IMG/VR virus record: IMGVR_UViG_2706794664_000004
Reading direction: 5' to 3' (one strand)
Length of the DNA: 27,702 nt
DNA from: a virus
Taxonomy: Duplodnaviria > Heunggongvirae > Uroviricota > Caudoviricetes
The translations under genes and the position numbers were made by a program. Under the pieces are notes generated by a model that worked only from the letters and a program-made list of their open reading frames with translations, did no database searches and was not told where the DNA came from. Below, piece after piece: positions 6,317 to 25,016 of the stretch (positions are counted from its first letter, which is position 1; the number at the start of each line of letters is the position of its first letter).

Positions 6317-6326
6317 ATCCCGGTTT

Positions 6327-7397: not shown

Positions 7398-7404
7398 CAG
7401 AGAA

Positions 7405-7432
7405 ATTATACGCGCCACAGTCAGTTTGTGAA
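7405..7432 (-). promoter_or_regulatory. sigma70-like promoter on minus strand (-35 TTCACA / 16 bp / -10 TATAAT)
   Basis: Minus-strand sequence TTCACAaactgactgtggcgcgTATAAT; + strand coordinates: -10 at 7405-7410 (attata), -35 at 7427-7432 (tgtgaa). Confidence 0.45.
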
Positions 7433-7504
7433 AATGTGAAGATATTCAGAATTTTTATGCCATTACCGGTTTTAACCAACAGGATTATCGGTGGGCATGA
7501 AAGA

Positions 7505-7540
7505 AAACCCCGGTATCTGCTGATACCGGGGTTTCTCTTT
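7505..7540. terminator. strong hairpin, possible bidirectional terminator or insulator
   Basis: Perfect 13-bp stem AAACCCCGGTATC (7505-7517) / GATACCGGGGTTT (7522-7534) with 4-nt loop TGCT; T-rich on both flanks. Confidence 0.45.
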
Positions 7541-7637
7541 AGCATGGCAGAAATGTGTTTCATGCTTTTCGGGCGAAGGATATCCGACTTCTGTACGGAA
7601 TGGCAAGTGGCGGTTAATTTATTCAGGGGAAGGCTGT

Positions 7638-10600
7638 ATGGGAAAAGGTGGCGGTAAGGCACACACGCCTCGTGAGGCGAAGGATAATCTCAAATCCACG
7701 CAGATGATGAGCGTGATTGATGCGATTGGTGAGGGACTGATAGAAGGTCCGGTGAAGGGACTGCAGAGTATCCTGGTGAACAAAACCCCGCTGACGGACA
7801 CGGACGGTAATCCCGTGATACACGGTGTGACGGCGGTCTGACGCGCCGGGGAGCAGGAGCAGACACCACCGGAAGGCTTTGAGTCCTCCGGTGCTGAAAC
7901 CGGACTGGGCGTGGAAGTGACGAAGGCAAAACCGGTGACGCGCACCATTACGTCCGCGAACATTGACCGCCTGCGGGTTACCTTCGGGGTGCAGTCACTG
8001 GTGCAGACCACGTCAAAGGGTGACCGAAACCCGACATCCGTCCGCCTGCTGATTCAGTTACAGCGTAACGGTAACTGGGTGACAGAAAAGGATGTCACCA
8101 TTAACGGCAAGACCACCTCGCAGTTTCTGGCGTCGGTGATTCTGGATAATCTGCCTCCCCGTCCTTTTAACATCCGGATGGTCCGGGAGACAGCGGACAG
8201 CACCACGGACCAGCTGCAGAATAAGACGCTGTGGTCGTCATACACCGAAATCATCGATGTGAAACAGTGCTACCCGAACACGGCCATTGTGGGGCTGCAG
8301 GTGGATGCGGAGCAGTTCGGCGGCCAGCAGATGACGGTGAACTACCATATCCGCGGTCGCATCATCCAGGTGCCGTCAAACTATGACCCGGAAAAACGCA
8401 CGTACAGTGGTATCTGGGACGGTAGCCTGAAACCGGCATACAGCAACAATCCGGCCTGGTGTCTGTGGGACATGCTGACTCACCCGCGCTACGGCATGGG
8501 AAAACGTCTGGGGGCGGCGGATGTGGACAAGTGGGCGCTGTATGCCATCGGGCAGTACTGCGACCAGACGGTCCCGGATAGTTTCGGGGAGACCGAGCCG
8601 CGGATGACCTTCAATGCGTACCTGGCACAACAGCGTAAGGCATGGGACGTGCTCAGTGATTTCTGCTCGGCGATGCGCTGTATGCCGGTATGGAACGGCC
8701 AGACGCTGACGTTTGTTCAGGACCGCCCGTCGGATGTGGTGTGGCCGTACACCAACAGCGATGTGGTGGTGGATGATAACGGCGTGGGTTTCCGCTACAG
8801 CTTCAGTGCCCTGAAGGACCGGCACACGGCGGTGGAGGTGAATTATACCGACCCGCAGAACGGCTGGCAGACCTCCACGGAACTGGTGGAAGACCCGGAA
8901 GCCATACTGCGCTACGGACGCAACCTGCTGAAGATGGACGCGTTCGGCTGTACCAGCCGCGGTCAGGCCCACCGTGCCGGACTGTGGGTGATAAAGACCG
9001 AACTGCTGGAAACGCAGACGGTGGATTTCACGCTCGGGTCTCAGGGGCTGCGGCACACACCCGGTGACATCATTGAAATCTGTGATAACGACTATGCCGG
9101 GACCCTGACCGGCGGACGTGTCCTGTCCATTGATGCTGCCACCCGCACTCTGACGCTGGACCGTGAAGTGACACTTCCGGAGACCGGTGCCGCCACGGTG
9201 AACCTGATTAACGGCAGCGGTAAGCCGGTGAGTGTGGACATCACCGAACACCCCGCGCCGGACCGGATACAGGTCAGTACCCTGCCTGATGGTGTGGAGA
9301 CATACGGGGTGTGGGGACTCTCCCTGCCGTCACTGCGCCGTCTCCTGTTCCGCTGTGTCTCCGTCCGGGAAAACACGGACGGCACCTTTGCCATCACGGC
9401 GGTGCAGCACGTACTGGAAAAAGAAGCCATCGTGGATAACGGTGCCCGCTTTGAGCCGCAGTCAGGTTCCCTGAACAGCGTCATCCCACCGGCAGTGCAG
9501 CACCTGACGGCCAGTATCTGGCGCAGGCGAAATGGGACACGCCGCGGGTGGTGAAGGGTGTGCGCTTCAGTCTGCGCCTGACCAGTGGTAAGGGAACGGA
9601 TGCCAGACTGGTGACCACCGCCATCACCGCAGACACGGAGCACCGTTTCAGCGGCCTGCCGCTCGGGGAATACACCCTGACGGTGCGGGCGATAAACAGC
9701 TATGGCCAGCAGGGTGAACCTGCCACCACCACCTTCCGGATTGCCGCACCGGCAGCACCGTCGCGGATTGAGCTGACGCCGGGCTATTTTCAGATAACCG
9801 CAACGCCGCATCTTGCCGTTTATGACCCGACGGTACAGTTTGAGTTCTGGTTCTCGGAAAAGCGGATTGCGGATATCAGGCAGGTTGAAACCAGCGCCCG
9901 CTATCTTGGCACGGCGCTGTACTGGATAGCCGCCAGTATCAATATCAAACCGGGCCATGATTATTATTTTTACGTTCGCAGTGTGAACACCGTTGGCAAA
10001 TCGGCATTCGTGGAGGCTGTCGGTCGGGCGAGCGATGATGCGGAAGGTTACTTGGATTTTTTCAAAGGAGAGATAGGGAAAACACATCTGGCTCAGGAGC
10101 TGTGGACGCAGATTGATAACGGTCAGCTTGCGCCTGACCTGGCTGAAATCAGGACGTCCATTACGGATGTCAGCAATGAAATCACGCAGACTGTCAATAA
10201 GAAACTGAAAGACCAGAGTGCGGCAATCCAGCAGATACAGAAGGTTCAGGTTGATACAAATAATAATCTGAACAGCATGTGGGCTGTGAAGCTGCAACAG
10301 ATGAAGGACGGACGCCTTTATATTGCGGGTATCGGTGCCGGTATTGAGAATACGCCAGCAGGAATGCAGAGTCAGGTGCTGCTGGCGGCAGACAGGATTG
10401 CGATGATTAATCCTGCGAATGGCAACACAAAGCCGATGTTTGTTGGTCAGGGCGATCAGATATTCATGAACGACGTGTTCCTGAAACGCCTGACGGCTCC
10501 CACCATTACCAGCGGCGGTAATCCTCCGGCATTTTCCCTGACACCGGACGGAAAACTGACCGCTAAAAATGCAGATATCAGTGGCAGTGTGAATGCGAAC

Positions 10601-11089
10601 GCCGGGACGCTCAACAATGTCACAATTAATGAGAACTGTCAGATTAAGGGGAAACTGTCAGCCAACCAGATTGAAGGCGATATAGTCAAAACAGTGGGTA
10701 AGGCTTTTCCGCGGGACTCCCGGGCACCGGAGCGGTGGCCATCAGGGACCATTACCGTCAGGATTTATGACGATCAGCCTTTTGACAGGCAAATTGTTAT
10801 TCCGGCGGTGGCATTCAGCGGCGCTAAACATGAGCGGGAGAATAACGATATTTATTCGTCATGCCGCCTGATAGTACGGAAAAACGGTGCTGAAATTTAT
10901 AACCGTACCGCGCTGGATAATACGCTGATTTACAGTGGTGTTATTGATATGCCAGCTGGTCGCGGCCACATGACGCTGGAGTTTTCGGTGTCAGCATGGC
11001 TGGTGAATAACTGGTATCCCACAGCAAGTATCAGCGATTTGCTGGTTGTGGTGATGAAGAAAGCCACCGCAGGCATCAGTATCAGCTGA
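7638..11089 (+). pseudogene. J: central tail fibre / host specificity protein, lambda gpJ homologue, disrupted by an in-frame TGA (7839-7841) and a frameshift near 9506-9515
   Basis: Three ORF pieces (7638-7841, 7911-9554, 9548-11089) are collinear with lambda gpJ from MGKGGGKAHTPREAKDNLKSTQ to the C-terminus. Frame 0 continues in homology through the TGA (TAV*RAGEQEQTPPEGFESSG). Homology switches from frame 0 (PPAVQHLTA) to frame 2 ([17 protein letters not shown]) near 9510. Confidence 0.8.
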
Positions 11090-11107
11090 ATTTTATAACC
11101 CATATAC

Positions 11108-11135
11108 GGGCGCCAGAAATGGCGCCTTTTTTATT
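11108..11135 (+). terminator. rho-independent terminator after J
   Basis: GGCGCC (11109-11114), loop AGAAAT, GGCGCC (11121-11126), followed by TTTTTTATT. Confidence 0.65.
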
Positions 11136-11156
11136 GCAGAAAAGCGAGAGGTAATT

Positions 11157-11760
11157 ATGCGTAAAGTTTGTGCAGCCATTTTGTCCGCAGCCATCTGTCT
11201 GTCCGTATCCGGTGCGCCTGCATGGGCGTCTGAACATCAGTCCACACTGAGCGCGGGGTATCTTCATGCCCGTACGAACGCTCCCGGCAGCGATAATCTG
11301 AACGGGATTAACGTGAAATACCGTTATGAGTTTACGGACGCGCNNNNNNNNNNNNNNNNNNNNNNNNNNNNNNNNNNNNNNNNNNNNNNNNNNNNNNNNN
11401 NNNNNNNNNNNNNNNNNNNNNNNNNNNNNNNNNNNNNNNNNNNNNNNNNNNNNNNNNNNNNNNNNNNNNNNNNNNNNNNNNNNNNNNNNNNNNNNNNNNN
11501 NNNNNNNNNNNNNNNNNNNNNNNNNNNNNNNNNNNNNNNNNNNNNNNNNNNNNNNNNNNNNNNNNNNNNNNNNNNNNNNNNNNNNNNNNNNNNNGACCGG
11601 AAGTGATGACGGTCGCCACAGCAACACGTCTCTGGCGTGGGGGGCTGGCGTGCAGTTTAACCCGACCGAATCCGTGACCATTGACCTTGCTTATGAAGGT
11701 TCCGGTAGTGGTGACTGGCGAACGGATGCATTTATTGTTGGTATCGGATACCGTATCTGA
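11157..11760 (+). CDS. lom: Lom/Ail/PagC-family outer membrane protein (lambda Lom homologue); middle hidden in N-run
   Basis: N-terminus MRKVCAAILSAAICLSVSGAPAWA (signal peptide) ...NGINVKYRYEFTDA and C-terminus ...SLAWGAGVQFNPTESVTIDLAYEGSGSGDWRTDAFIVGIGYRI* match lambda Lom beta-barrel motifs. N- and C-terminal parts are in different frames across N-run 11344-11594. Confidence 0.8.
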
Positions 11761-11864
11761 CAACAGACGCCGATTTATCTTCTGTAAATATTGTTATGAT
11801 ACGCAGGTTCATCCACCTTATGGGGTGAACTGCGTTTGAGGAAACGTAAAGTTACACTGTCCTG

Positions 11865-11900
11865 AAGCCCGTGGCGTCACTGCTGCGGGCTTTTTTTATT
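11865..11900 (+). terminator. rho-independent terminator after lom
   Basis: Stem AAGCCCG (11865-11871) / CGGGCTT (11886-11892), then TTTTTTTATT (11891-11900). Confidence 0.6.
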
Positions 11901-11911
11901 GGTGGAAAAGT

Positions 11912-14539
11912 ATGACAGTAAAAATTTCTGGCGTGCTTAAAGATGGCACAGGAAAACCAGTACAGAACTGCACCATTGTGCTGAAGGCCAGACGAACCAG
12001 CAGCACGATGGTGGTGAACACGGTGGCCTCTGAAAATCCGGATGAAGCCGGACGTTACAGCATGGATGTTGAGCATGGTCAGTACAGCGTCACCCTGCTG
12101 GTTGAAGGTTTTCCGCCTTCACATGCCGGGACCATTACCGTCTATGAAGGTTCCAGACCAGGTACGCTGAATGATTTTCTCGGTGCCATGACGGAGGATG
12201 ATGTCCGACCGGAGGCACTGCGCCGCTTTGAGCAGATGGTGGAAGAGGTGTCACGTAACGCCTCCGCGGTTGCACAGAATACGGCAGCCGCGAAAAAATC
12301 AGCCAGCGAGGCGGCAACTCATGCAACCGATGCTGCAGCCTCAGCACGTGCCGCCAGCACGTCAGCCGGACAGGCCGCGTCGTCGGCTCAGTCAGCGTCT
12401 TCCAGCGCAGGAACGGCATCGACAAAGGCCCGTGAAGCAGCAAAAAGTGCTGCTGCAGAGTCATCAAAAAGCGCGGCAGCTACCAGCGCCAGTGCCGCGA
12501 AAACGTCAGAAACGAATGCCGCAGCATCACAAAAATCGGCAGCCACTTCTGCATCCACAGCGACCACGAAGGCGTCAGAAGCTGCCACCTCGGCACGGGG
12601 TGCGGCGGCCTCAAAAGAGGCAGCGAAATCTTCAGAAACGAATGCATCATCAAGTGCCAGTAGTGCAGCTTCCTCGGCAACGGCGGCAGGAAATTCCGCG
12701 AAGGCGGCAAAAACGTCCGAGACGAACGCTAAGTCTTCTGAAACAGCAGCGGGACAGAGCGCCTCAGCTGCGGCAGGTTCAAAAACAGCGGCTGCATTAT
12801 CTGCCAGTGCCGCGTCAACAAGTGCCGGGCAGGCCTCAGCCAGTGCCACCGCCGCCGGAAAATCGGCAGAAAGCGCCGCATCATCCGCTTCAACAGCCAC
12901 AACGAAGGCTGGCAAAGCCACTGAGCAAGCCACTGCAGCAGCGAGGTCTGCTTCTGCAGCAAAAACCTCTGAAACAAATGCAAAGACTTCAGCAGACAAT
13001 GCTGCTTCCTCTAAGGCAGCAGCCGCATCGTCAGCCAGTTCAGCGGCGTCATCGGCATCATCTGCGTCTGCTTCAAAAGATGAGGCGACCAGACAAGCGT
13101 CAGCAGCGAAAGGTAGTGCCACGACAGCAACAACGAAAGCATCAGAGGCGGCAGGCAGTGCGACGGCTGCATCTCAGAGCAAAGTTGCTGCTGAATCCGC
13201 GGCAACGCGCGCCGAGACAGCAGCAAAACGGGCAGAGGATATTGCATCCGCCGTGGCGCTGGAGGATGCGAGCACGACGAAAAAGGGGATAGTACAGCTC
13301 AGCAGTGCGACCAACAGCACTTCCGAGTCACTGGCGGCAACGCCAAAAGCGGTTAAGGCGGTAATGGGTGAAACGAACAAGAAAGCGCCCTTAAATAGTC
13401 CTGCACTGACCGGAACGCCAACAACACCAACTGCGCGACAGGGAACGAATAATACCCAAATCGCAAGCACGGCTTTCGTTATGGCTGCGATTGCCGCCCT
13501 TGTAGATTCGTCACCTGATGCACTGAACACGCTGAACGAGCTGGCTGCGGCGCTGGGCAACGACCCGAATTTTGCGACCACCATGACTAACGCGCTTGCG
13601 GGTAAGCAACCGAAAGATGCCACTCTGACGGCGCTGGCGGGGCTTGCTACTGCGGCAGACAGGTTTCCGTATTTTACGGGGAATGATGTCGCCAGCCTGG
13701 CAACCCTGACAAAAGTCGGGCGGGATATTCTTGCGAAATCGACCGTTGCTGCCGTTATCGAATACCTCGGTTTACGAGAACTCGGCACAAGCGGGGAGAA
13801 AATACCGTTACTCAGTACAGCGAATACCTGGACTAATCGACAAACATTCAGCGGTGGCCTTTCTGGTGAACTATCCGGCAATGCTTCTACAGCTGCAAAA
13901 TTAAAAACTGCCAGGAAAATAAGCAATGTGGCTTTTGATGGTTCCTCCGATATCACATTAAAAGCAAGTCATGTTGGTGCGTTTGCCTTAGGGAAAACAG
14001 GAAGCACCGTTGCGAATGATAAAGCAGTTGGATGGAACTGGAGTAGCGGAGCCTATAACGCAACTATTAGTGGTGCATCAACGTTAATTATTCATTTTTA
14101 TATGGGAGAAGGAAGTTGTCCTGCAGCTCAGTTTCGGATTAATTATAAAAATGGCGGTATTTTTTATCGTTCAGCCCGTGATGGTTATGGTTTTGAAGCC
14201 GACTGGTCCGAATTTTACACCACCAGAAAACCTTCAGCAGGAGATGTTGGTGCACTGCCGTTATCTGGTGGTCAACTGAATGGTGCACTGGGTATCGGAA
14301 CATCCAGTGCTCTTGGCGGTAATTCGATTGTATTGGGTGATAATGACACGGGCTTTAAACAAAAAGGCGATGGTAATCTGGATGTTTATGCTAATAACGT
14401 CCATGTTATGCGCTTTGTCTCCGGAAGCATTCAAAGTAATAAAACCATAAATATTACGGGACGTGTTAATCCCTCGGATTACGGTAACTTTGATTCCCGC
14501 TATGTGAGAGATGTCAGACTTGGCACACGAGTTGTTTAG
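11912..14539 (+). CDS. stf: side tail fibre protein Stf (constant N-terminal part plus fused cassette v1), ended early by in-frame TAG at 14537-14539
   Basis: 875-aa ORF; N-terminus MTVKISGVLKDGTGKPVQNCTIVLKARRTS resembles lambdoid Stf proteins; long Ala/Ser/Thr-rich repeat region; C-terminal part shares modules with the downstream fibre cassettes. Crossover site A lies at codons for VIEYLGL (13754-13774). Confidence 0.85.
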   Translation: MTVKISGVLKDGTGKPVQNCTIVLKARRTSSTMVVNTVASENPDEAGRYSMDVEHGQYSVTLLVEGFPPSHAGTITVYEGSRPGTLNDFLGAMTEDDVRPEALRRFEQMVEEVSRNASAVAQNTAAAKKSASEAATHATDAAASARAASTSAGQAASSAQSASSSAGTASTKAREAAKSAAAESSKSAAATSASAAKTSETNAAASQKSAATSASTATTKASEAATSARGAAASKEAAKSSETNASSSASSAASSATAAGNSAKAAKTSETNAKSSETAAGQSASAAAGSKTAAALSASAASTSAGQASASATAAGKSAESAASSASTATTKAGKATEQATAAARSASAAKTSETNAKTSADNAASSKAAAASSASSAASSASSASASKDEATRQASAAKGSATTATTKASEAAGSATAASQSKVAAESAATRAETAAKRAEDIASAVALEDASTTKKGIVQLSSATNSTSESLAATPKAVKAVMGETNKKAPLNSPALTGTPTTPTARQGTNNTQIASTAFVMAAIAALVDSSPDALNTLNELAAALGNDPNFATTMTNALAGKQPKDATLTALAGLATAADRFPYFTGNDVASLATLTKVGRDILAKSTVAAVIEYLGLRELGTSGEKIPLLSTANTWTNRQTFSGGLSGELSGNASTAAKLKTARKISNVAFDGSSDITLKASHVGAFALGKTGSTVANDKAVGWNWSSGAYNATISGASTLIIHFYMGEGSCPAAQFRINYKNGGIFYRSARDGYGFEADWSEFYTTRKPSAGDVGALPLSGGQLNGALGIGTSSALGGNSIVLGDNDTGFKQKGDGNLDVYANNVHVMRFVSGSIQSNKTINITGRVNPSDYGNFDSRYVRDVRLGTRVV
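12260..13260 (+). repeat. Ala/Ser/Thr-rich imperfect tandem repeats inside stf (motif AAKTSETNA recurs four times)
   Basis: Translation SAAKTSETNAAASQKSAATSA / AAKSSETNASSSASSAASSA / AAKTSETNAKSSETAAG / SAAKTSETNAKTSADNAASS; corresponding DNA repeats gc.aaaac.tc.ga.ac.aa.gc. Confidence 0.7.
13755..13780 (+). other. invertase crossover site A (gix/pix-like, 26 bp) inside stf
   Basis: TTATCGAATACC-TC-GGTTTACGAGAA; reverse complement of site B is identical over 21 bp; resembles Mu gix (TTATCCAAAACCTCGGTTTACAGGAA) as I recall it. Confidence 0.7.
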
Positions 14540-14689
14540 ACCATGAAGAAAGGCGTGATGTATGAAAAATCAGGCCATGTAATCACGGGGCTTGGTATTA
14601 TCGGTGAAGTCGATGGTGATGATCCGGCAGTATTCAGACCAATACAAAAGTTAATTAACGGAACATGGTATAACGTATCGCAGGTATAA
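14540..14689 (+). other. displaced C-terminal 49 codons of stf cassette v1, downstream of the in-frame amber
   Basis: Same frame as stf reads [49 protein letters not shown] (TAA 14687-14689), homologous to the C-termini of cassettes v2, v3, v4 (...RPIQ..INGTWYNxxSx*). Confidence 0.75.
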
Positions 14690-14691
14690 TC

Positions 14692-15225
14692 ATGCAGCAT
14701 TTAAAAAACATTGTCGCAGGTAATCCAAAAACCGTTGAACAATACCAGCTAACAAAGAATTTTGATGTTATCTGGTTATGGTCCGAAGATGGAAAAAATT
14801 GGCATGAGGAATTAAAAAACTTTCAGGAGGATACAATAAAACTGGCTTACACAGTTGAGGGAATAATTATTGCTATAGACAAGGATGTATCAGCAATTAA
14901 TCCAGAAGGTTTAAGTGTCGTTGAGTTGCCTGATATTACAGCAAATCGCCGGGCTGATATTTCGGGCAACTGGATGTTCAAAGATGGTGCGGTGATAAAG
15001 CGAACTTATACCGAGGAAGAGCAAAGGCAACAAGCGGAAAATGAAAAGCAGAGCCTGCTGCAGCTCGTCAGGGATAAAACCCAGCTGTGGGACTCTCAGC
15101 TACAGCTGGGCATCATTTCCGATGAGAATAAACAAAAATTAACCGAGTGGATGCTCTATGCGCAGAAGGTTGAATCCACAGACACCTCCAGCCTGCCAGT
15201 AACGTTTCCCGAACAACCAGAATGA
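14692..15225 (+). CDS. tfa: tail fibre assembly protein Tfa (partner of cassette v1)
   Basis: 177-aa [43 protein letters not shown]...[10 protein letters not shown]...; Tfa-family motifs; immediately after the fibre C-terminus. Confidence 0.85.
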
Positions 15226-15300
15226 GAGAAGGCCCGCTATCGGGCCTTAATTTTTATTCAGGCTTTTGTGGCCATTCAGGATTTGCCGTATCCACACGGC
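14929..15300. repeat. direct repeat copy 1 (tfa 3' half plus shared terminator plus 3' end of minus-strand tfa)
   Basis: About 370 bp, roughly 90% identical by eye to 17998-18369 (for example cctgatattacagcaaatcgccgggctgatattt... and aaggcccgctatcgggccttaatttttattcaggcttttgtggccattc). Confidence 0.8.
15229..15258. terminator. bidirectional intrinsic terminator between convergent tfa genes
   Basis: AAGGCCCG-CTAT-CGGGCCTT followed by AATTTTTATT; sits between the + tfa stop (15225) and the minus tfa stop (15254). Confidence 0.6.
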
Positions 15301-15781
15301 TGACCAGAACACTGTAGCGTTCCCATGCTTCCAGTCGTGTGCGTTCCTCGTCTGTTGCCATATTCAGCCTGACAGCGCGTTCCAGCGGCTGGATGACTGA
15401 TTCAGCTTCGGAAAGCAATGCGGCCTTTTGTGATTCGGCCTGTTGTTGCTGTTCGTCAGCCGTATAAATCCGTTTAACCACAGCTCCGTCCTTAAACATC
15501 CACTTACCGGAATCATCAGCACGACGATTAGCTGTAATATCAGGAACTTCAACTATGCTTAGCCCTTCAGGATTAATAGTTGAAACGTCTTTACTGACAG
15601 CAACGATGATGTTGTTCTCATCGTAAGCAATTTTTATGGTGTCTGGCTGAAAATTCTTTTGTTCCTCATACCAGTTTTTGCCATCTTCGCAAAAGAGCCA
15701 TACCACGCCCGCTTTTTTAGTTAGCTGGTATTGTTCCGGTGTTTTCGGATTCCCGGCCTTAATATTTTTCAGGTGCATCAT
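15254..15781 (-). CDS. tfa: tail fibre assembly protein Tfa (partner of cassette v2)
   Basis: Minus-strand ORF; likely start at ATGATG 15776-15781 ([23 protein letters not shown]...) preceded by SD GGGGAG; ORF track begins 12 codons further upstream. C-terminus ...[14 protein letters not shown]. Confidence 0.8.
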
Positions 15782-15782
15782 C

Positions 15783-16696
15783 TTAAACACTCCCCACGTT
15801 GTACCATATTCCCCCAATCAATTTCTGAATTGGCCTTCTGGCAACAGTGTCGACAATATCATCCGCATTGCTGTTAATTGCGGCTGTTAAAACATAACCT
15901 GACGCATCGCCAAAGCCGTAGTCGCGCCATACGTTTTTATATTCAATGCTGCCAAGACGAATATCCCGAACGACATGATTATGCAGCCATGTGCTTAACC
16001 AGTTGTTTTCCCACACTGAACCATAAATATCGCCACTAGACGCAACTTGCGCACCACTTCCCAGCGCAAATCCCCCATCTGTTTTAAAAATGAAATCACC
16101 ACCACCATCTGAACCGTTATTAATATGAACACCATCACCACCGTTATCTTTCCACAAAAACATACGAATTCTTCCGTCTTCGTTGGCGAATGTAATGTGG
16201 TGGCGGTAATTACTTTTTAATCTAAAATTGCTGCCATTAGATTCAATATCTTTATAAAGATGTAATCCTAACTCATCAATATGTCCGATACGCGAACCAT
16301 TTGAATAGAAGCTAATAATACCATCTCCATCTTGCCTAAATCCGGTGTCGTTATCTCCCAGAACAATGGAGTTTTCACCCAGTGCGTTATCAGTAGCTCC
16401 AATAGCTAGACCTCCTTTAATTTTGGCCCCGTGGCTGACAGATATAGCACCTGTTCTCAGATTTATAGCGAATGGCCTTAATGGGCCGATATTACCGTTT
16501 TCGCCTTGTCCTTCAGCCGTCGGAATGAAATGAAGAAAATCTTCTGAACGACGGAAAATTAGACCGAAGGTATCATTGAAAATTCGCAGCGCATTCACCG
16601 TGCCAATTTTCAGTTCTCCGGTCATTTTATCGCCGGAACGCTGAACGGCGTTACCAGCCTTGTTTACCGTTTCCTGTAAACCGAGGTATTCGATAA
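15783..16696 (-). CDS. silent alternative tail-fibre C-terminal cassette v2 (no own start; 5' end is crossover site B)
   Basis: Minus-strand frame reads [41 protein letters not shown]...[18 protein letters not shown]; first 8 residues identical to the Stf junction peptide; upstream is N-run. Confidence 0.75.
16671..16696 (-). other. invertase crossover site B (inverted relative to site A)
   Basis: + strand TTCCTGTAAACC-GA-GGTATTCGATAA; reverse complement TTATCGAATACCTCGGTTTACAGGAA. Confidence 0.7.
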
Positions 16697-16981
16697 CGGC
16701 NNNNNNNNNNNNNNNNNNNNNNNNNNNNNNNNNNNNNNNNNNNNNNNNNNNNNNNNNNNNNNNNNNNNNNNNNNNNNNNNNNNNNNNNNNNNNNNNNNNN
16801 NNNNNNNNNNNNNNNNNNNNNNNNNNNNNNNNNNNNNNNNNNNNNNNNNNNNNNNNNNNNNNNNNNNNNNNNNNNNNNNNNNNNNNNNNNNNNNNNNNNN
16901 NNNNNNNNNNNNNNNNNNNNNNNNNNNNNNNNNNNNNNNNNNNNNNNNNNNNNNNNNNNNNNNNNNNNNNNNNNNNNNNNG

Positions 16982-17758
16982 GAGAGTCAGGGAGCATTTA
17001 ACCATCCTTACTGGATGTGCAAAGGCTCATGGGCTTATGCAAATAATAAGGTCATTACAGATACAGGTTGCGGAAATATTTGTCTTGCAGGTGCTGTGGT
17101 GGAAGTTATTGGCACTCGCGGCGCAATGACCATACGCGTTACCACGCCGAGCACGTCCAGCGGTGGCGGAATTACTAACGCTCAATTCACTTATATTAAT
17201 CATGGTGATGCTTACGCTCCTGGCTGGCGACGAGACTACAACACGAAAAATCAACAACCTGCATTTGCTTTAGGGCAAACAGGAAGCACTGTCGGAAATG
17301 ATAAAGCTGTTGGCTGGAACTGGAATAGCGGGGTCTATAACGCAAACATTGGTGGCGCATCGACATTAATCCTCCACTTCAATATGAATACGGGGAGCTG
17401 CCCTGCTGTACAGTTCCGCGTGAATTACAGGAACGGCGGTATTTTTTATCGTTCAGCGCGTGATGGTTATGGCTTTGAAGCTGACTGGTCAGAGTTTTAC
17501 ACCACAACCCGCAAACCCTCTGCGGGAGATGTTGGTGCATATACGCAGGCAGAATGTAACTCAAGGTTTATTACAGGTATTCGCCTTGGTGGTCTGTTAT
17601 CTGTTCAGACATGGAATGGTCCCGGATGGTCTGACAGGTCAGGTTATGTTGTTACCGGTTCCGTTAACTCAAACAGAGATGAACTAATTGATACAACTCA
17701 GGCAAGGCCAATTCAGTATTGCATTAATGGGACGTGGTATAACGCGGGGAGTATTTAA
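16982..17758 (+). CDS. alternative tail-fibre C-terminal cassette v3 (+ orientation; 5' end and presumed crossover site inside N-run)
   Basis: Open frame from 16982 (ESQGAFNHPYWMCKGSWAYANN...) to TAA 17756-17758. Central module AFALGQTGSTVGNDKAVGWNWNSGVYNANIGGASTLILHFNMNTGSCPAVQFRVNYRNGGIFYRSARDGYGFEADWSEFYTT is about 85% identical to stf v1; C-terminus RPIQYCINGTWYNAGSI. Confidence 0.75.
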   Translation, partial: ESQGAFNHPYWMCKGSWAYANNKVITDTGCGNICLAGAVVEVIGTRGAMTIRVTTPSTSSGGGITNAQFTYINHGDAYAPGWRRDYNTKNQQPAFALGQTGSTVGNDKAVGWNWNSGVYNANIGGASTLILHFNMNTGSCPAVQFRVNYRNGGIFYRSARDGYGFEADWSEFYTTTRKPSAGDVGAYTQAECNSRFITGIRLGGLLSVQTWNGPGWSDRSGYVVTGSVNSNRDELIDTTQARPIQYCINGTWYNAGSI

Positions 17759-17760
17759 CG

Positions 17761-18294
17761 ATGATGCACTTAAAAAACATTTCTGCTGGTAATCCTGAAA
17801 CAAAAGAGCAATACCAGCTAACGAAACAATTTAACATCAAATGGCTTTATACAGAGGATGGGAAAAACTGGTATGAGGAACAAAAGAACTTTCAGCCTGA
17901 TACGTTGAAAATGGTCTATGACCACAACGGCGTTATTATTTGTATTGAAAAGGATGTTTCAGCAATTAATCCGGAAGGCGCAAGCGTCGTTGAGGTTCCT
18001 GATATTACAGCAAATCGCCGGGCTGATATTTCAGGTAAATGGATGTTCAAAGATGGCGTAGTGATAAAGCGAACTTATACCGGGGAAGAGCAGAGGCAAC
18101 AAGCGGAAAATGAAAAGCAAAGCCTGCTACAGCTCGTCAGGGATAAAACCCAGCTATGGGACTCACAGCTACGGCTGGGCATTATTTCCGACGAGAATAA
18201 ACAAAAATTAACCGAGTGGATGCTCTATGCGCAGAAGGTCGAATCCACAGACACCTCCAGCCTGCCAGTAACGTTTCCCGAACAACCAGAATGA
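17761..18294 (+). CDS. tfa: tail fibre assembly protein Tfa (partner of cassette v3)
   Basis: 177-aa [43 protein letters not shown]...; C-terminal half near-identical to the tfa at 14692-15225. Confidence 0.85.
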   Translation: MMHLKNISAGNPETKEQYQLTKQFNIKWLYTEDGKNWYEEQKNFQPDTLKMVYDHNGVIICIEKDVSAINPEGASVVEVPDITANRRADISGKWMFKDGVVIKRTYTGEEQRQQAENEKQSLLQLVRDKTQLWDSQLRLGIISDENKQKLTEWMLYAQKVESTDTSSLPVTFPEQPE

Positions 18295-18369
18295 AACAAG
18301 GCCCGATATCGGGCCTTAATTTTTACTCAGGCTTTTGTGGCCATTCTGGCTTTGCCGTATCCACACGGC
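17998..18369. repeat. direct repeat copy 2 (paralogous to 14929-15300)
   Basis: See copy 1; ends at N-run 18370. Confidence 0.8.
18298..18327. terminator. bidirectional intrinsic terminator between convergent tfa genes (paralogue of 15229-15258)
   Basis: AAGGCCCG-ATAT-CGGGCCTT followed by AATTTTTACT. Confidence 0.6.
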
Positions 18370-18910
18370 NNNNNNNNNNNNNNNNNNNNNNNNNNNNNNN
18401 NNNNNNNNNNNNNNNNNNNNNNNNNNNNNNNNNNNNNNNNNNNNNNNNNNNNNNNNNNNNNNNNNNNNNNNNNNNNNNNNNNNNNNNNNNNNNNNNNNNN
18501 NNNNNNNNNNNNNNNNNNNNNNNNNNNNNNNNNNNNNNNNNNNNNNNNNNNNNNNNNNNNNNNNNNNNNNNNNNNNNNNNNNNNNNNNNNNNNNNNNNNN
18601 NNNNNNNNNNNNNNNNNNNNNNNNNNNNNNNNNNNNNNNNNNNNNNNGCCCGGCGATTTGCTGTAATATCAGGAACCTCAACGACGCTATAACCTTCAGG
18701 GTTAAGCGTGGAGGCATCTTTGGTGATGGCGACAATAATATTATTTGCATCGTAAACAATCTTTATTGTGTCTGGCTGAAAGTTCTTCACTTCCTCATAC
18801 CAGTTTTTTCCGTCCTCAGAGTAAAGCCAGATGACTCCGTGCTTCTTTGTTAACTCATACTGCTCCACTGTTTTAGCATTACCTGCTTTTATGTTCTTTA
18901 AGTGCATCAT
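18323..18910 (-). CDS. tfa: tail fibre assembly protein Tfa (partner of cassette v4); middle hidden in N-run
   Basis: Minus-strand ORF, likely start ATGATG 18905-18910 ([40 protein letters not shown]...), C-terminus [14 protein letters not shown]. Confidence 0.75.
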
Positions 18911-18911
18911 A

Positions 18912-19940
18912 TTAAATACTCGCCACATTATACCAAGTGCCATTTATATACTTTTGCACTGGCCTGTAATGAACGCCTGCAATATTATCGGCAGAGTTTT
19001 TTCCGGTATCCTGTACGTTAATCCCCGTCAGTACATAGCCTGACGGGCACTGAAAATTCCATGTTTGCCAGTTGTTCACTCCATAATATTGCTGTGAACC
19101 AAGTCGAACATCTTTCACATATCTGGAATCAAAATTGCCATAGTTGCCGGGAATAACTTGCGAGCCGCAAAGCCAGTTCCCGTTATTATCCATGTACGCC
19201 TGACCATCGGTGCCATTGGCTGTCCTTGAGTTATTAATCATGTAGATGCCAAATTGCTTATTTCCCAGACCGCCAATCATAAATTTGCGGTCGGCATGGT
19301 CCTGACGGAGCAAAGCCTGAGCACCATCAGTGGATACCGCATTACGTCCCAAAATAACATTCTGGTCACGCATATGAATCCACATGCCGGTACTACTGTT
19401 AATTGCAAAACGGTTTGCAAATATATCCCCTGTAACATCAAGACCATGCCCCATGCTTATCCGGCCAGTTCTGAGATTAAGCGTAAAGGGGCGTAGTGGC
19501 CCTATATTACCATTTTCCCCTTCATTCTCTCGTGTAGGGATGATATGCAGGCATTCTTCAGAACGACGAAAAATGGCACCAAAAGATGAATTAAATATCC
19601 TCAGTGCATTGACTGTCGATATTTTCACTTCACTGCTGAAAAGGGCTTCAACAAGAACAGACAAAGCATTCCATTTAAGATTCATCAGGTCTTTAGGCCG
19701 GGTGCCAATGATGCGGTGTCTCCATTTGAAATATTCATTGCCGTTGTTGCCTGTTTCAAACCACATGTAGGAATCGGTGTCTGCATCCGAATTATTTTTA
19801 AACCCAATCTTTGCCCAGTCAGTATTTCGAATCCAGGCAAGGATTGAGTCGTTTTCAAAAGTAAGTCCACCGGACAACGTATCGCCATTTTTTTGCACGG
19901 CGTTACCAGCCTTGTTTACCGTTTCCTGTAAACCGAGGTT
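18912..19940 (-). CDS. silent alternative tail-fibre C-terminal cassette v4 (no own start; reaches into crossover site C)
   Basis: Minus frame reads [31 protein letters not shown]...[18 protein letters not shown]; an in-frame TAA (+ 19941-19943) lies just upstream, so it is only translated after fusion to stf. ORF track starts at internal Met (19898). Confidence 0.75.
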
Positions 19941-19948
19941 TTAGATAA
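19923..19948 (-). other. invertase crossover site C (gix-like, next to the invertase gene)
   Basis: + strand TTCCTGTAAACC-GA-GGTTTTAGATAA, one mismatch from Mu gixL as I recall it; same orientation as site B, inverted relative to site A. Confidence 0.75.
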
Positions 19949-20002
19949 TGGCCGTTTCCGGCCTGCATGGCATGATTTGCGCTTTTGGACGGGAGATTCA
20001 GC

Positions 20003-20590
20003 GTGCTGATTGGCTATGTAAGGGTATCAACAAATGACCAGAATACAGACCTGCAACGAAACGCTCTTGTTTGTGCAGGATGTGAACAAATATTTGAAGA
20101 TAAATTAAGCGGGACAAAGACAGACCGACCGGGATTAAAACGCGCTTTAAAGCGCCTTCAAAAAGGTGACACGCTGGTTGTCTGGAAACTGGATCGCCTC
20201 GGGCGAAGCATGAAACATCTGATTTCTCTCGTCGGGGAACTACGGGAGCGAGGAATTAATTTTCGCAGTCTGACCGACAGCATAGATACATCTTCTCCAA
20301 TGGGGCGTTTTTTCTTCCACGTGATGGGTGCCCTGGCTGAAATGGAACGTGAATTAATTGTTGAACGTACACTGGCCGGACTGGCGGCAGCACGCGCACG
20401 GGGGCGCACAGGCGGACGTCGACCGAAGCTGACAAAAGAACAGCATGAGCAAATAGCAAGGCTGATCAAAAACGGGCACGACAGAAAACAACTGGCAATA
20501 ATTTACGGCATTGGTATATCGACGATTTATCGTTACCACCCCGCAGGAGAATCAATCGGAACAATAGAGAAGAGTCAGGAAACAAAATAA
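20003..20590 (+). CDS. pin: site-specific DNA invertase, serine recombinase of the Pin/Gin/Hin/Cin family
   Basis: GTG 20003 with SD GGGAGA 6 nt upstream; VLIGYVRVSTNDQNTDLQRNALVCAGCEQIFEDKLSGTKTDRPGLKRALKRLQKGDTLVVWKLDRLGRSMKHLISLVGELRERGINFRSLTDSIDTSSPMGRFFFHVMGALAEMERELIVERT... is near-identical to E. coli Pin from memory; catalytic Ser in YVRVST. ORF track extends 6 codons upstream to TTG 19985. Confidence 0.9.
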   Translation: MLIGYVRVSTNDQNTDLQRNALVCAGCEQIFEDKLSGTKTDRPGLKRALKRLQKGDTLVVWKLDRLGRSMKHLISLVGELRERGINFRSLTDSIDTSSPMGRFFFHVMGALAEMERELIVERTLAGLAAARARGRTGGRRPKLTKEQHEQIARLIKNGHDRKQLAIIYGIGISTIYRYHPAGESIGTIEKSQETK

Positions 20591-20620
20591 CCGCTAATCT
20601 GACCATTAGCGGTTTTTGTG
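20591..20620. terminator. bidirectional intrinsic terminator between pin (+) and P2-like U (-)
   Basis: CCGCTAAT-CTGACC-ATTAGCGG followed by TTTTTGTG; T-rich on the opposite flank as well. Confidence 0.6.
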
Positions 20621-20625
20621 TTAAA

Positions 20626-21120
20626 TCAGAACAACCCTTTAACTGAACTGGCCGCGCTGTTAAGGGATGATGTTACCTTATCTTTGAAGCCGGACAGCAT
20701 ATCGCTGAACGATGAGGATTGCAGGCGCTCCCGCAAATCCTCATCACAGCGTTCAAGAGTCAGTGAAAATTCTATCTTTTTCGCCTTACCGTAGCGATCA
20801 AACTCGGAGCGGGTCGTATTCGTTTCGGTCAGGACATACATGCCGTAAATCTGCCCGACGCCATCAATCAGAGGCCAGGGTCGTCCTGTATACGCCTGCG
20901 TGGTCAGCAGCGACAGCGACACTTCGCCACCTGTAATTTCAGGATAAAGCACACCAGAAAGAACGATGCGCTCATCACCTGCACCGATATACTGCCAGCT
21001 TGCCGAACGGTTAACGCGTTCATTTTTCACATGCCGCCAGCTTTTGTTTTGCTGTAACTGCTGATGCGGCAATGTACGCAGCTCAAAAACAAACATGCCG
21101 TAGATCATCATCATGGCCAT
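20626..21120 (-). CDS. U: P2 gpU-like tail protein
   Basis: 164-aa minus ORF MAMMMIYGMFVFELRTLPHQQLQQNKSWRHVKNERV...GVLYPEITGGEVSLSLL...KKIEFSLTLERCDED..., SD GAGGAG; position after tape measure as in P2. Confidence 0.8.
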   Translation of the reverse strand: MAMMMIYGMFVFELRTLPHQQLQQNKSWRHVKNERVNRSASWQYIGAGDERIVLSGVLYPEITGGEVSLSLLTTQAYTGRPWPLIDGVGQIYGMYVLTETNTTRSEFDRYGKAKKIEFSLTLERCDEDLRERLQSSSFSDMLSGFKDKVTSSLNSAASSVKGLF

Positions 21121-21126
21121 GACTCC

Positions 21127-23910
21127 TCAATCTTTATCGTAAAAACTGCCACGCCCGGCACGGGCGCGCCGTTCCATTTCTGCCCTGACCATTTCACCGA
21201 CCAGTTTCGCCAGTTCGCGGGGATTCTGCGTAACAACGTTATGCAGATGAACATGAATTTCACCACCAAATCCGGAGGCAACAGGCTCCCGGTTACGGGA
21301 AGTTACAGGAACTGATGCCACTGGAGAGCGTATGGCCTCCGCCACCGGGCGGGAGCTGGCCGCAACAACAGGGACCAGCGCCGGAGGCAGCGGAGCCGGG
21401 ACCACGGGTGTGATATTAATTGCGGGGGCAGGCTTACTGACCTGCGCAATCTTCCGCTCCTGCCACTCCCCACGAACAGCAAGTGCGCGGGGCAGGTTCT
21501 TAAAGACAATATCGCCGGGGCCAATGCGTTTTTTCGTCTCATCAACCAGCTTACCTGTGTTATCAGCAATTTTGCTGAGTCTGCGTAGCGTCCCGGTATT
21601 GCTGTCTGTGAGCGGTTTGTTGTCTTTGGGTTTATCACCTCCGGTGCCATTGCCATTTTCCACAGGCTTCGGCGGATTGATTTTCGCCAGGTCCCCCTGA
21701 AGCAAGGCAACCTTGTCCTGAAGAATGGCCGCACGCTGTGCGTCTTCGATTTTCTTGCGCGCCCTTTCCGCTTCATCCGGAAGGACGCCAAGTTTTTCAA
21801 GTATCCACGCCAGCGTATCCAGTAGCATTTTTGCAGGTGTCAGAACAAGTTGTAACGCACCGCCAAGAACGTTACCGAATATCTCGCCAGCACTGGCACA
21901 TTTATCCAGCGTTTCCTTGCTGGACTCCATCGGTGACAGCAGCGATTTAAACCAGTTAAAGACCTGAATAATCCCATCGCGCACGACATCAAAAACAGGG
22001 CCAAACCGTTCAAAGGTTTCGCGCAACGGGGTCAGCCTTTCCATAATCCCGCTGAACACCCCGGCAAAAAATGCCCTGATGGGATCCCAGTATTTCCAGA
22101 TAAGAACGGCAGCTCCGGCAAGCGCAGCCACGATAAGACTAACCGGACTGAACAGCGCCCCGATAGCGCCACCAAGTAAAGAAACGGAACCCGTCACCAT
22201 TCCCCATAATGCAGGCAGAACCCTGACAACATTCATTGATTCGGTCAGGAGAGAAAAACCGAGACGCAACGTAGCCAGCTTCCCGTGAAGCACCCCAATA
22301 ACCAGAGACAACGAACCAACCGTTGCTGTTGTCGCCAGCAGTGCGCCTCCCGCTATCAGTAACTGGCGCGTCAGTGCCGGGTGGGCCTGCGCCAGCGCCG
22401 TCACCTTTGAGACAACCCGCGTGAGCCACTGCGTGACAGAACGCAGCGGACCGTCAACCAGATCACTGATGCGAATACGCAGACCTTCCCATGCACTGCC
22501 GAGTGATTTCAGGTTGCCATCAAGGTTATTGGCCATAACCTTTGCCGTGCGTTCTGCCTCACCGCGCGCGCCTTCAAGTTCTTTTCTCAGTTTGGCTAAG
22601 AAGCCGTCACCTGCCGCATCAACGAGGCCCATAAATGATGTGAAAGCCTCTTCTCCGGCAATGTCCTTAAAGAACGATACCCGGTCAACCTCCCCGTATT
22701 TGCGGGTGGCTTTATAGAGATCGGCCAGCACATTCTCCATCGGGCGCATTTTGCCTTTGGCGTCAGCAACTGACACCCCCAGCTCTTTCAGTGCTTCTGC
22801 CGCTGCCTTTGGCGGTGATGACAGATTGGCCAGGCTTTTACGCAACGCTGTACCTGCATCACTCCCCCTGATACCCATCTTCGCCAGCACGCCCGCCATC
22901 GCTGCGGCCTGCTCCAGCGATATTCCCAGCTTACCCGCCACCGGACCTGCATATTTCATGGTTTCGCCCAGTGCGCGAAGGTCAGTGTTGGTACGGGTAA
23001 ACGCTGCGGTAAGTGTGTCACCGACCCGGTCCATCTGGTCAGCAGAGAGGCCGAACTGCGTCAGGATATTGGAACCAATATCCGCCGTCTCGCCGAGGTC
23101 CATACCGCCAGCCGTTGCCATGCTCAGCACGCCGGGAAGCGCAGCCTGAATGGCCTGCGGTGTGAAACCAGCCATTGCAAGAAATGCCTGTCCACTGGCG
23201 GCATCGCCTGCGGTGAACTGCGTTTCAGAGCCAAGTTTTAACGCCTGCTCACGCAGCGCCTTAAACTGCGGGCTGTTTTTATCGATTCGCGTCAGTGCCT
23301 GAACACGGGACATCTCTTTCCCGAACCCGATAGCGGGCTGCAAAAAACGCCCGGCAGCATAGCCGCCCGCTGCCGCCGCACCTGTTGCCAGCGCACCACC
23401 TGTTTTCAGTTNNNNNNNNNNNNNNNNNNNNNNNNNNNNNNNNNNNNNNNNNNNNNNNNNNNNNNNNNNNNNNNNNNNNNNNNNNNNNNNNNNNNNNNNN
23501 NNNNNNNNNNNNNNNNNNNNNNNNNNNNNNNNNNNNNNNNNNNNNNNNNNNNNNNNNNNNNNNNNNNNNNNNNNNNNNNNNNNNNNNNNNNNNNNNNNNN
23601 NNNNNNNNNNNNNNNNNNNNNNNNNNNNNNNNNNNNNNNNNNNNNNNNNNNNNNNNNNNNNNNNNNNNNNNNNNNNNNNNNNNNNNNNNNNNNNNNNNNN
23701 NNNNNNNNNNATCAGCTTTTGTTGTTTTTCGCTGAGCACTGTACCCGTGCGTTGTAACTGATTAAGGGCGTTAAGCTGGCGTCGTGCTTTCACGATGCCC
23801 GCATCCGCTTTACTGACAGCGTCACGGGCGCGCTCAAATGAACGCGCCTGACGCTCGAGATTTTTGATCGCCCCCTGCGTTCGCTGGATGGAGTCACCAA
23901 ACTGCCCCAT
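21127..23910 (-). CDS. T: tail tape measure protein (P2 gpT-like); part hidden in N-run
   Basis: 927-aa minus ORF, N-terminal coiled-coil-like MGQFGDSIQRTQGAIKNLERQARSFERARDAV..., Gly/Ala-rich hydrophobic segments (LKTGGALATGAAAAGGYAAG...), length and position typical of a myovirus tape measure. Confidence 0.85.
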   Translation of the reverse strand: MGQFGDSIQRTQGAIKNLERQARSFERARDAVSKADAGIVKARRQLNALNQLQRTGTVLSEKQQKLXXXXXXXXXXXXXXXXXXXXXXXXXXXXXXXXXXXXXXXXXXXXXXXXXXXXXXXXXXXXXXXXXXXXXXXXXXXXXXXXXXXXXXXXXXXXXXXXXXXXXLKTGGALATGAAAAGGYAAGRFLQPAIGFGKEMSRVQALTRIDKNSPQFKALREQALKLGSETQFTAGDAASGQAFLAMAGFTPQAIQAALPGVLSMATAGGMDLGETADIGSNILTQFGLSADQMDRVGDTLTAAFTRTNTDLRALGETMKYAGPVAGKLGISLEQAAAMAGVLAKMGIRGSDAGTALRKSLANLSSPPKAAAEALKELGVSVADAKGKMRPMENVLADLYKATRKYGEVDRVSFFKDIAGEEAFTSFMGLVDAAGDGFLAKLRKELEGARGEAERTAKVMANNLDGNLKSLGSAWEGLRIRISDLVDGPLRSVTQWLTRVVSKVTALAQAHPALTRQLLIAGGALLATTATVGSLSLVIGVLHGKLATLRLGFSLLTESMNVVRVLPALWGMVTGSVSLLGGAIGALFSPVSLIVAALAGAAVLIWKYWDPIRAFFAGVFSGIMERLTPLRETFERFGPVFDVVRDGIIQVFNWFKSLLSPMESSKETLDKCASAGEIFGNVLGGALQLVLTPAKMLLDTLAWILEKLGVLPDEAERARKKIEDAQRAAILQDKVALLQGDLAKINPPKPVENGNGTGGDKPKDNKPLTDSNTGTLRRLSKIADNTGKLVDETKKRIGPGDIVFKNLPRALAVRGEWQERKIAQVSKPAPAINITPVVPAPLPPALVPVVAASSRPVAEAIRSPVASVPVTSRNREPVASGFGGEIHVHLHNVVTQNPRELAKLVGEMVRAEMERRARAGRGSFYDKD

Positions 23911-23939
23911 CAGGCGGCGGGCGTTTTCGGCAGGCCGGG

Positions 23940-24449
23940 TCAGCCTGTCAACGGCGCTGAAAGCGACCCGGATATCAAGAGTCNNNNNNNNNNNNNNNNN
24001 NNNNNNNNNNNNNNNNNNNNNNNNNNNNNNNNNNNNNNNNNNNNNNNNNNNNNNNNNNNNNNNNNNNNNNNNNNNNNNNNNNNNNNNNNNNNNNNNNNNN
24101 NNNNNNNNNNNNNNNNNNNNNNNNNNNNNNNNNNNNNNNNNNNNNNNNNNNNNNNNNNNNNNNNNNNNNNNNNNNNNNNNNNNNNNNNNNNNNNNNNNNN
24201 NNNNNGTCGCGGTGATGTCACGCGTGACAGCAGCGTAAACATGGATTCCGCTTTCAAATTCAGCACATCAGACAGCGACAAATCTCGCAGAGATCCAGCC
24301 TGCTCAATAGCCCCGGTGATCTCCACATACGTGATTTTTTCGCCGCCTCGCTCAATTGGTTGGGTAAGTTTTACGCCACGCTCACTGGTTTCTTTCACAG
24401 TGTCAGCAACGACCGTGTTTTCGGTATCGATGTTTTTCGTCTCTTTCAT
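23940..24449 (-). CDS. E: tail assembly chaperone (P2 gpE/E+E'-like); 3' two-thirds inside N-run, end approximate
   Basis: Visible N-terminus MKETKNIDTENTVVADTVKETSERGVKLTQPIERGGEKITYVEITGAIEQAGSLRDLSLSDVL..., SD AAAGGAG; small gene between tube and tape measure as in P2. Confidence 0.6.
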   Translation of the reverse strand: MKETKNIDTENTVVADTVKETSERGVKLTQPIERGGEKITYVEITGAIEQAGSLRDLSLSDVLNLKAESMFTLLSRVTSPRXXXXXXXXXXXXXXXXXXXXXXXXXXXXXXXXXXXXXXXXXXXXXXXXXXXXXXXXXXXXXXXXXXXXXXXXXXXLLISGSLSAPLTG

Positions 24450-24503
24450 CAGGAAACTCCTTTCAGTCAGAGGCGACGCACTGCGCCGCCTGCATATTAC
24501 TTA

Positions 24504-25016
24504 TCAGCCAAGCCCGAGCGCGGAACGGATGCGATCGGGCACAATGTCCCTGCCGTCCTTCCGGTAAATGAAGTTCAGCAGGTCAATCTCCCACAACGGG
24601 CGATCGTTAACACTCAGCTTGTAGTAGGTGTTTTTAATGGCGTAAGTGTGTGATGTGGCTTCGCCCTGTTTGGCTTCCCCCATATCAATTTCCGTCACAC
24701 GTCCGCGCATTTCGACTTCATACAGGTCGCTTTCAGCGTCGGTGTAGTATTCACCCGCAAAACGCAGCAGCGTACCGTCAATCGTGCCGCCATACTTAAG
24801 GAACAGCTCACGAACTGCGCCCCCCATGACAAAGCTCGCATCAAGCGCGGAGTCATCCAGGCCGAGATCAATACTTACCGCTCCCATCATGCCACCACCC
24901 CGGTAGCTGTCGGTTTTGCGCGTCAGCTTAGGCAGAGTGACGGACGTCACCTTACCCACTTCGTTTTCACCATCCACAAACAGCGTAAAAAAGCGAAGAT
25001 GTTTTGGTACAGCCAT
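24504..25016 (-). CDS. FII: tail tube protein (P2 gpFII-like)
   Basis: 170-aa minus ORF MAVPKHLRFFTLFVDGENEVGKVTSVTLPKLTRKTDSYRGGGMMGAVSIDLGLDD...; start overlaps FI stop (ATGA). Confidence 0.85.
   Translation of the reverse strand: MAVPKHLRFFTLFVDGENEVGKVTSVTLPKLTRKTDSYRGGGMMGAVSIDLGLDDSALDASFVMGGAVRELFLKYGGTIDGTLLRFAGEYYTDAESDLYEVEMRGRVTEIDMGEAKQGEATSHTYAIKNTYYKLSVNDRPLWEIDLLNFIYRKDGRDIVPDRIRSALGLG

Follow-up and report, generated by a model that had tools for sequence, protein, structure and literature searches.

The region between positions 11,912 and 20,590 of the IMG/VR record IMGVR_UViG_2706794664_000004 raises the question of whether two paralogous invertible units, four alternative C-terminal tail fiber cassettes, and a Pin-family DNA invertase belong to a single switch. 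The window, by which we mean the whole stretch of 27,702 nucleotides (nt) analyzed here, carries from left to right the tail fiber gene stf fused to cassette v1, a silent cassette v2, cassette v3, a silent cassette v4, and the invertase gene, with crossover sites A, B, and C among them (Table 1). An initial annotation, made from the sequence alone, took this region to be one shufflon-like locus that had arisen by tandem duplication and offers four cassettes to one Stf. That reading is not supported by comparison with relatives, as the two units lie in two prophage types and are linked only by a run of Ns. We consider it probable, and with good confidence, that the four-cassette array represents two Mu-type switches of two Shigella sonnei prophages that were mis-joined across a gap by the scaffolder.

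The flanks of the two units point to different prophages. Positions 5298 to 16700 are 99 to 100% identical to the lambdoid tail region (H, M, L, K, I, split J, lom, and stf) that adjoins the trp operon in closed S. sonnei chromosomes, and the constant part of stf is itself 99 to 100% identical to that of S. sonnei loci L011 and L012, which adjoin trp. Positions 16981 to 25353, to the right of the N-run, are 99.9 to 100% identical to the P2-type prophages L014, L016, and L018. In the relatives there is one invertible unit per prophage, and each unit occurs in both orientations. For unit 1, stf is fused to v1 in L011 and L012 and to v2 in L005 and L010, with P0100, P0102, and P0108 as further natural stf-v2 isomers. 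For unit 2, the P2-type gene gpH is fused to v3 in L002 and L014 and to v4 in L003, L015, and L018, the latter fusion being found also in L019 and L021. The mechanism first proposed is upheld for each unit by itself, in that a serine invertase swaps fiber C termini, as seen in the isomer pairs L005/L011, L002/L003, and L014/L018; a single multi-inversion locus composed of the two units is not supported.

Relatives also indicate where the site belonging to v3 is to be found. Cassette v3 does lie on the + strand with its 5′ end in the N-run at 16701 to 16980, as first described, and its presumed site had been assigned to the same run. In L014 and L016, the fourth site sits inside gpH and not back to back with site B; it is 193 nt upstream of the equivalent of position 16981, and what precedes it is ~330 gpH constant codons and not a further site. 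In L014, this site D occupies positions 6028 to 6053, with gpH constant codons 5′ of it.

The nature of the N-run is clarified by the origin of the record. The window corresponds to the whole of public record CWSV01000046.1 (assembly GCA_001255555.1), an S. sonnei short-read draft, Ns included, and an exact look-up of the tfa2′ protein (CSE38203.1, S. sonnei) returned this contig only. The record is made up of ten sequence pieces, one of only 53 bp, and nine N-runs of 222 to 299 bases, around which the public gene calls are broken. The 53-bp island, at 4995 to 5047, lies between two N-runs in the lambdoid tape-measure gene, as is typical of a short-read scaffold. Against L014, where the flanking sequence is 100% identical, N-runs of 278, 299, and 222 bases correspond to 218, 245, and 277 nt, respectively; compared with L012, 274 Ns stand for 628 nt; and 251 Ns in place of 247 nt break the lom reading frame. 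Because these lengths disagree with those in relatives of 100% identity, the N-runs are scaffold gaps of estimated size and not masks. The run at 16701 to 16980, previously regarded as 280 hidden bases, is likewise a scaffold gap of the public record with a length that is only estimated, and the contiguity of units 1 and 2 is consequently unproven. Treating it as a mask to be lifted was abandoned, as the public record carries the same Ns and there is nothing to unmask. A second gap, at 18370 to 18647 within tfa4′, had been overlooked, as had an in-frame TAG in v1. An N-run in a public record should not be equated with hidden sequence.

Within each unit, the elements expected of a fiber switch are present. 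A pattern search of the window with TTATCNAANACCTCGGTTTAC located sites A, B, and C with 0 mismatches and no further site, and at least three matches arose in 0 of 100 shuffles. The three sites are identical to Mu gixL/gixR at 24 to 25 of 26 positions, with site A in the opposite orientation to B and C. They have in common the central dinucleotide TC/GA, which makes them compatible for exchange, and each starts at the second base of the Val/Ile codon in A(V/I)IEYLGL, such that the codon phase is equal. Fusing the stf constant part to v2 in silico at the central dinucleotide (A × B) yields an uninterrupted open reading frame (ORF) of 918 amino acids (aa), of which 915 are the same as in a naturally occurring S. 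sonnei protein (L005), and the corresponding fusion to v4 (A × C) gives an uninterrupted in-frame ORF of 959 aa. Positions and orientations of the sites, as well as the in-frame joining to v2 or v4, were thus correctly recognized from the outset. The claim that an in-frame stop precedes both silent cassettes applies to v4 (TAA, 19943 to 19941) and not to v2, where the outer half of site B reads GAA in place of TAA and the v2 ORF runs outward into the gap without an in-frame stop. Each of the four cassettes has a fiber tip domain. In agreement with the initial annotation, each is followed by its own assembly gene (Caudo_TAP), v1 and v3 share internal modules, as do v2 and v4, and the tfa/terminator junction is repeated.

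In several Shigella genomes (L015, L019, and L020), an IS3-family element interrupts the outer half of site C at positions that correspond to 19938 to 19941 of the window, with a 4-bp overlap in the alignments. Such an insertion should lock unit 2 in one orientation.

The assignment of the invertase as an intact member of the Pin family also holds. The protein aligns with the Gin structures 4m6f and 3uj3 (E 1.7e-100) and retains the catalytic serine in LIGYVRVSTNDQ, a position changed to Ala in 3uj3, and Pfam recognizes a Resolvase domain (E 1.3e-50) followed by HTH_7. In Mu gin, a Fis-dependent enhancer lies in the first part of the gene (~200 nt); the first 200 nt of the invertase gene in the window match Mu gin at 197 of 200 positions. 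This is the only intact invertase, and it is that of the P88-like prophage. The lambdoid pin is a 5′ remnant in closed genomes, where a pin-flank-type half-site and ~300 nt of the truncated pin gene come after unit 1.

When these findings are combined, two parallel switches can be envisaged. Unit 1 (site A, v1, tfa1, tfa2′, v2′, and site B) is the invertible segment of the lambdoid stf, and unit 2 (v3, tfa3, tfa4′, v4′, site C, and pin) is that of the P88-like gpH. The invertase, with Fis bound to the enhancer within the 5′ end of the invertase gene, would exchange strands at the central TC of inverted 26-bp sites, and the resulting inversion would put one of two promoterless C-terminal cassettes, together with its chaperone gene, behind the constant part of the fiber. 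The P88-like invertase would flip unit 2 in cis and the orphan unit 1 in trans. Gin, Cin, Pin, and Hin are known to be interchangeable, from which we infer that the intact invertase probably flips lambdoid unit 1 in trans, and this would account for the occurrence of both unit 1 orientations despite the remnant pin.

Whether switching still matters to the lambdoid prophage is a separate issue. The in-frame TAG at 14537 to 14539 divides the fused stf-v1 gene into ORFs of 875 and 48 aa. Because gene calls in many S. sonnei genomes show this amber split of v1 as well, the expressed lambdoid fiber is a pseudogene or requires suppression. The lambdoid tail tip gene J (window positions 7911 to 11089) is likewise divided into two overlapping ORFs (547 and 513 aa), a state shared with S. 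sonnei relatives. Judged from its genes, the lambdoid prophage looks defective, and given the split of J into two ORFs and the amber codon in v1, the switch is probably without consequence for it.

Signs of assembly error are found on both sides of the gap. The contig spanning 11595 to 16700 holds patches of paralogue sequence from the other prophage, namely, a cluster of variants near the 3′ end of the stf constant part (Table 1) and, by alignment, bases 15450 to 15533 of tfa2′, which are identical to tfa4′. In the gene-position collection, the patched Stf and Tfa proteins are present in this contig only, the usual S. sonnei versions being widespread. Over their last 229 bp (13547 to 13775), the two fiber constant regions are effectively one repeat in this assembly, and this repeat lies directly upstream of the point at which the paths to v1 and v3 diverge. 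At the other side, the left end of the contig spanning 18648 to 23411 (18648 to 18660, ~12 nt) follows the reverse complement of tfa3 and not the tfa4′ of L014. The stretch at 18648 to 18660 contains a conserved coding motif that forms an inverted repeat between the convergent tfa genes. An attempt to deduce the k-mer size of the assembler from the contig ends, in which the last 13 nt of contig 11595 to 16700 were considered as possibly chimeric, gave inconsistent values and no conclusion.

Sister S. sonnei short-read drafts behave similarly at this locus: L024, L027, L028, and L032 stitch the same pieces together in contradictory orders, with N gaps. In L028, the 3′ end of stf occurs two times, once in each orientation; in L032, three pin-flank-v2 pieces are stacked with one stf-v2 piece, so that one assembly contains both junction types; and L027 joins gpH to the lambdoid right flank. 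In another draft, the 443-aa protein P0021 (SJD53979.1, S. sonnei, 20,008-bp contig) consists of the N-terminal half of v2, then the stf 3′ end with site A, and then v1, an order that is impossible by inversion and points to misassembly. We propose, as the probable cause of the tandem picture, that the near-identical last ~230 bp of the two fiber constant regions collapsed in the assembly graph of the present record and that the scaffolder then set the two alternative downstream branches in series across the gap. Short-read scaffolds can invent tandem arrays and chimeric genes at invertible, repeated prophage fiber loci, and caution is warranted when such loci are interpreted.

Several points weigh against a mis-joined scaffold. 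Some read pairs must have led the scaffolder to make this join, and at its eight remaining joins the record is collinear with relatives. On its right side, the tfa2′ patch is bounded by only 14 nt of shared sequence, so that a plain de Bruijn error would be insufficient and either a gap-closing step or real gene conversion would be needed. Where closed relatives carry stf-v1, their site B has an outer half of the pin-flank type (TTATCTAAAACC preceded by gcca), whereas that of the window is of the constant type (TTATCGAATACC preceded by gccg), and this contig end is thus not simply native lambdoid sequence. The scaffolding artifact, including the exact error made, is also something that we infer and do not demonstrate. 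As for site B, the contig ends 4 nt past it, one base before the stf and gpH flanks diverge. The simplest reading of its constant-type half would be an stf-v2 junction, derived from cells with a flipped unit 1 or from a second copy, a kind of junction often seen in S. sonnei (L005, L032, P0100, and P0102). It may alternatively reflect a gap-filling error or a real gpH-v2 exchange between prophages. Protein P0001 (471 aa, S. sonnei) was considered as a Mu S-v2 fusion and dropped, its cluster members P0100 and P0102 being composed of the 3′ part of stf and v2.

Were the tandem arrangement real, the lambdoid stf would be followed by two units with sites B and D back to back in the gap, forming a Min- or shufflon-like array in which nested inversions give access to four cassettes. 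The scaffold join is, after all, present in the public record, and A × C is in frame. The constant-type outer half of site B would be expected if earlier inversions had shuffled outer halves, the distance of site D from position 16981 would fit the estimated gap, and multisite tail fiber inversion is known from Min of p15B, as named in the title of reference 34 of PMC5903667. We nevertheless regard this arrangement as very improbable. Sequence spanning the join of units 1 and 2 was not found, and the flanks are those of two phage types, with a siphovirus tail on the left and contractile-tail genes on the right. Since strand exchange by an invertase invariably pairs an outer with an inner half-site, back-to-back sites with a short spacer between two outer halves could not come from site-specific recombination alone. 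In the closed chromosome UGZB01000001.1, the two prophages share one orientation and lie ~0.52 Mb apart (at 4.42 and 4.95 Mb), a layout in which direct adjacency of site B and v3 would need the loss of ~0.5 Mb including trp. In none of the 5426 complete E. coli genomes did any one place cover 80% of the query, and the best matches were single 4.2-kb units. Head-to-head site pairs 1 to 120 nt apart (scanned at spacings of 1 to 30, 31 to 60, 61 to 90, and 91 to 120 nt) were absent from 2.9 million viral contigs when searched with an exact pattern that misses diverged sites, and a single crossover site was common in the same contigs. Among 120 viral loci, two sites lay 2.7 to 4.1 kb apart in 29 and a tandem double unit occurred in none. 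The only one of these loci with three sites, L095, was examined as a candidate double unit and set aside: at 185 to 13165, it repeats a whole fiber-cassette/invertase block of 8.1 kb, with a period of 8120 bp, which could come either from the wrap-around of a circular genome or from two copies side by side. Sister scaffolds, finally, are demonstrably unreliable at this locus.

A different alternative is that, in this isolate or part of the culture, the invertase recombined lambdoid site B with P88-like site D, which would have inverted ~0.5 Mb and fused gpH to v2, with the scaffold giving a garbled picture of the outcome. In keeping with such an exchange, site B is of the constant type both in its outer half and in the adjoining 4 nt, the contig stops before the stf and gpH flanks differ, and the shared orientation of the prophages in UGZB01000001.1 makes B and D mutually inverted. 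Fusions resembling gpH-v2 and Mu S-v2 are also present in E. coli (P0057 and P0005, respectively). At L029 (4400 to 10843), a Mu-like S constant region runs in frame into v2 exactly at the site (outer half TTATCGATAACG), and this draft contig without Ns continues into unit 1, the lambdoid pin remnant, and the trp-side flank, all 99.8 to 100% identical to L005. The junction to a lambdoid flank in L029 would speak for the exchange; L029 could be a real recombinant between prophages or itself a chimeric draft contig. We judge the exchange to be unlikely, because an ordinary flip of unit 1 to stf-v2, common in S. sonnei, accounts for the same 16 bases, and because B × D recombination would set gpH and not v3 beside B, leaving the join unexplained. 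Gin-family invertases, moreover, strongly favor nearby sites within one supercoiled domain.

A broader hypothesis, which we offer as doubtful, is that one Gin-like invertase may serve sites across two or three S. sonnei prophages (lambdoid, P88-like, and Mu-like), flipping the orphan unit in trans and at times recombining between prophages. If this were the case, cassettes would be swapped among phages of unrelated types, inversions would span hundreds of kilobases of the chromosome, and inter-prophage recombination would have left its mark both in the constant-type outer half of site B and at the L029 junction. Cassette families are indeed common to lambdoid Stf, P2 gpH, and Mu S proteins (P0005 and P0057), and the sharing of cassettes among phage fiber types has long been known. 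Only inter-prophage recombination, if shown with long reads, would be new, with implications for cassette movement and for Shigella genome plasticity. Under the favored interpretation of two mis-joined Mu-type switches, the remaining biology is already known: it is the Gin/Pin host range switch, present twice in one genome and, in one of the two cases, as an orphan in a dead prophage.

Table 1. Coordinates of the fiber switch features, the intervening gap, and neighboring genes in the window
Feature	Positions	Strand	Remarks
stf constant part	11912-13768	+	~615 codons; Pfam phage_tail_N; defective lambdoid prophage
Six variants in stf	13624-13662	+	match P2-type gpH paralogue, not S. sonnei stf; three-way alignment
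Crossover site A	13755-13780	+	gix-like; constant-type outer half and v1 inner half
Cassette v1	13769-14689	+	presently fused to stf; in-frame TAG at 14537-14539 (translation)
tfa1	14692-15225	+	tail fiber assembly gene for v1; Pfam Caudo_TAP, E 4.8e-34
Hairpin terminator	15229-15248	.	between convergent tfa1 and tfa2′
tfa2′	15254-15781	-	bases 15450-15533 identical to tfa4′ paralogue of P88-like prophage
Cassette v2	15783-16682	-	silent orientation; Pfam gp37_trimer
Crossover site B	16671-16696	-	outer half of constant-region type: TTATCGAATACC plus gccg
Scaffold gap	16701-16980		lambdoid-prophage contig to P88-like-prophage contig; N-run in public record
Cassette v3	16981-17758	+	without first 167 nt and own site; 100% identical to L014 6221-6998
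tfa3	17761-18294	+	
Terminator	18298-18317		near-identical repeat of the 15229-15248 hairpin; between convergent assembly genes
tfa4′	18316-18943	-	interrupted by scaffold gap 18370-18647
Cassette v4	18912-19934	-	silent; first ~40 residues match Mu S G(+) variable part
Crossover site C	19923-19948	-	pin-flank-type outer half; carries in-frame TAA
Gin/Pin-family DNA invertase	20006-20590	+	194 aa from GTG; alternative start TTG at 19985
P88-like (Xuanwuvirus) tail genes	20626-27467		gpU, tape measure, E/E′, tube, and sheath (-); gpD (+); Pfam

Comparison with known systems places these units among simple two-cassette switches. Min of p15B and the R64 shufflon combine several cassettes and more than two crossover sites with one fiber or pilus gene, and the recombinase of the R64 shufflon is the tyrosine recombinase Rci, acting on sfx sites. 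In contrast to Min, only three sequenced sites are present here, spread over two prophage backbones that are linked only by a scaffold gap. Unlike in R64, the recombinase is a serine invertase and not Rci, so that strictly speaking the locus does not qualify as a shufflon.

Among sequenced phages, P88 (Xuanwuvirus, Peduoviridae) comes nearest; its invertase region is 98% identical in DNA, and it shows the same order of gpH, tfa, tfa′, H′, and invertase, then gpU to sheath on the opposite strand, and then gpD. The cassettes of P88 differ from those found here, and the window lacks the gpH constant part and the left-hand site, which fall in or beyond the gap.

The closest functional parallel is the G segment of Mu with Gin, and likewise the C segment of P1 with Cin and the P segment of e14 with Pin. 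Several defining features of the Gin/Cin/Pin/Hin (Din) switches are found here, namely, a catalytic serine and helix-turn-helix in the invertase, inverted 26-bp sites with matching central dinucleotides, cassettes with chaperones that fuse in frame, and both orientations in relatives. As in Mu, the 26-bp sites lie within the fiber gene, two cassette-plus-chaperone pairs converge, the invertase gene is located just outside the right-hand site and encodes a catalytic domain near-identical to that of Gin, and the start of v4 resembles Mu S G(+). What sets the present case apart from Mu is its setting in a P88-like P2-type prophage and a lambdoid prophage, the lambdoid copy lacking an invertase of its own and carrying an amber codon in the expressed cassette.

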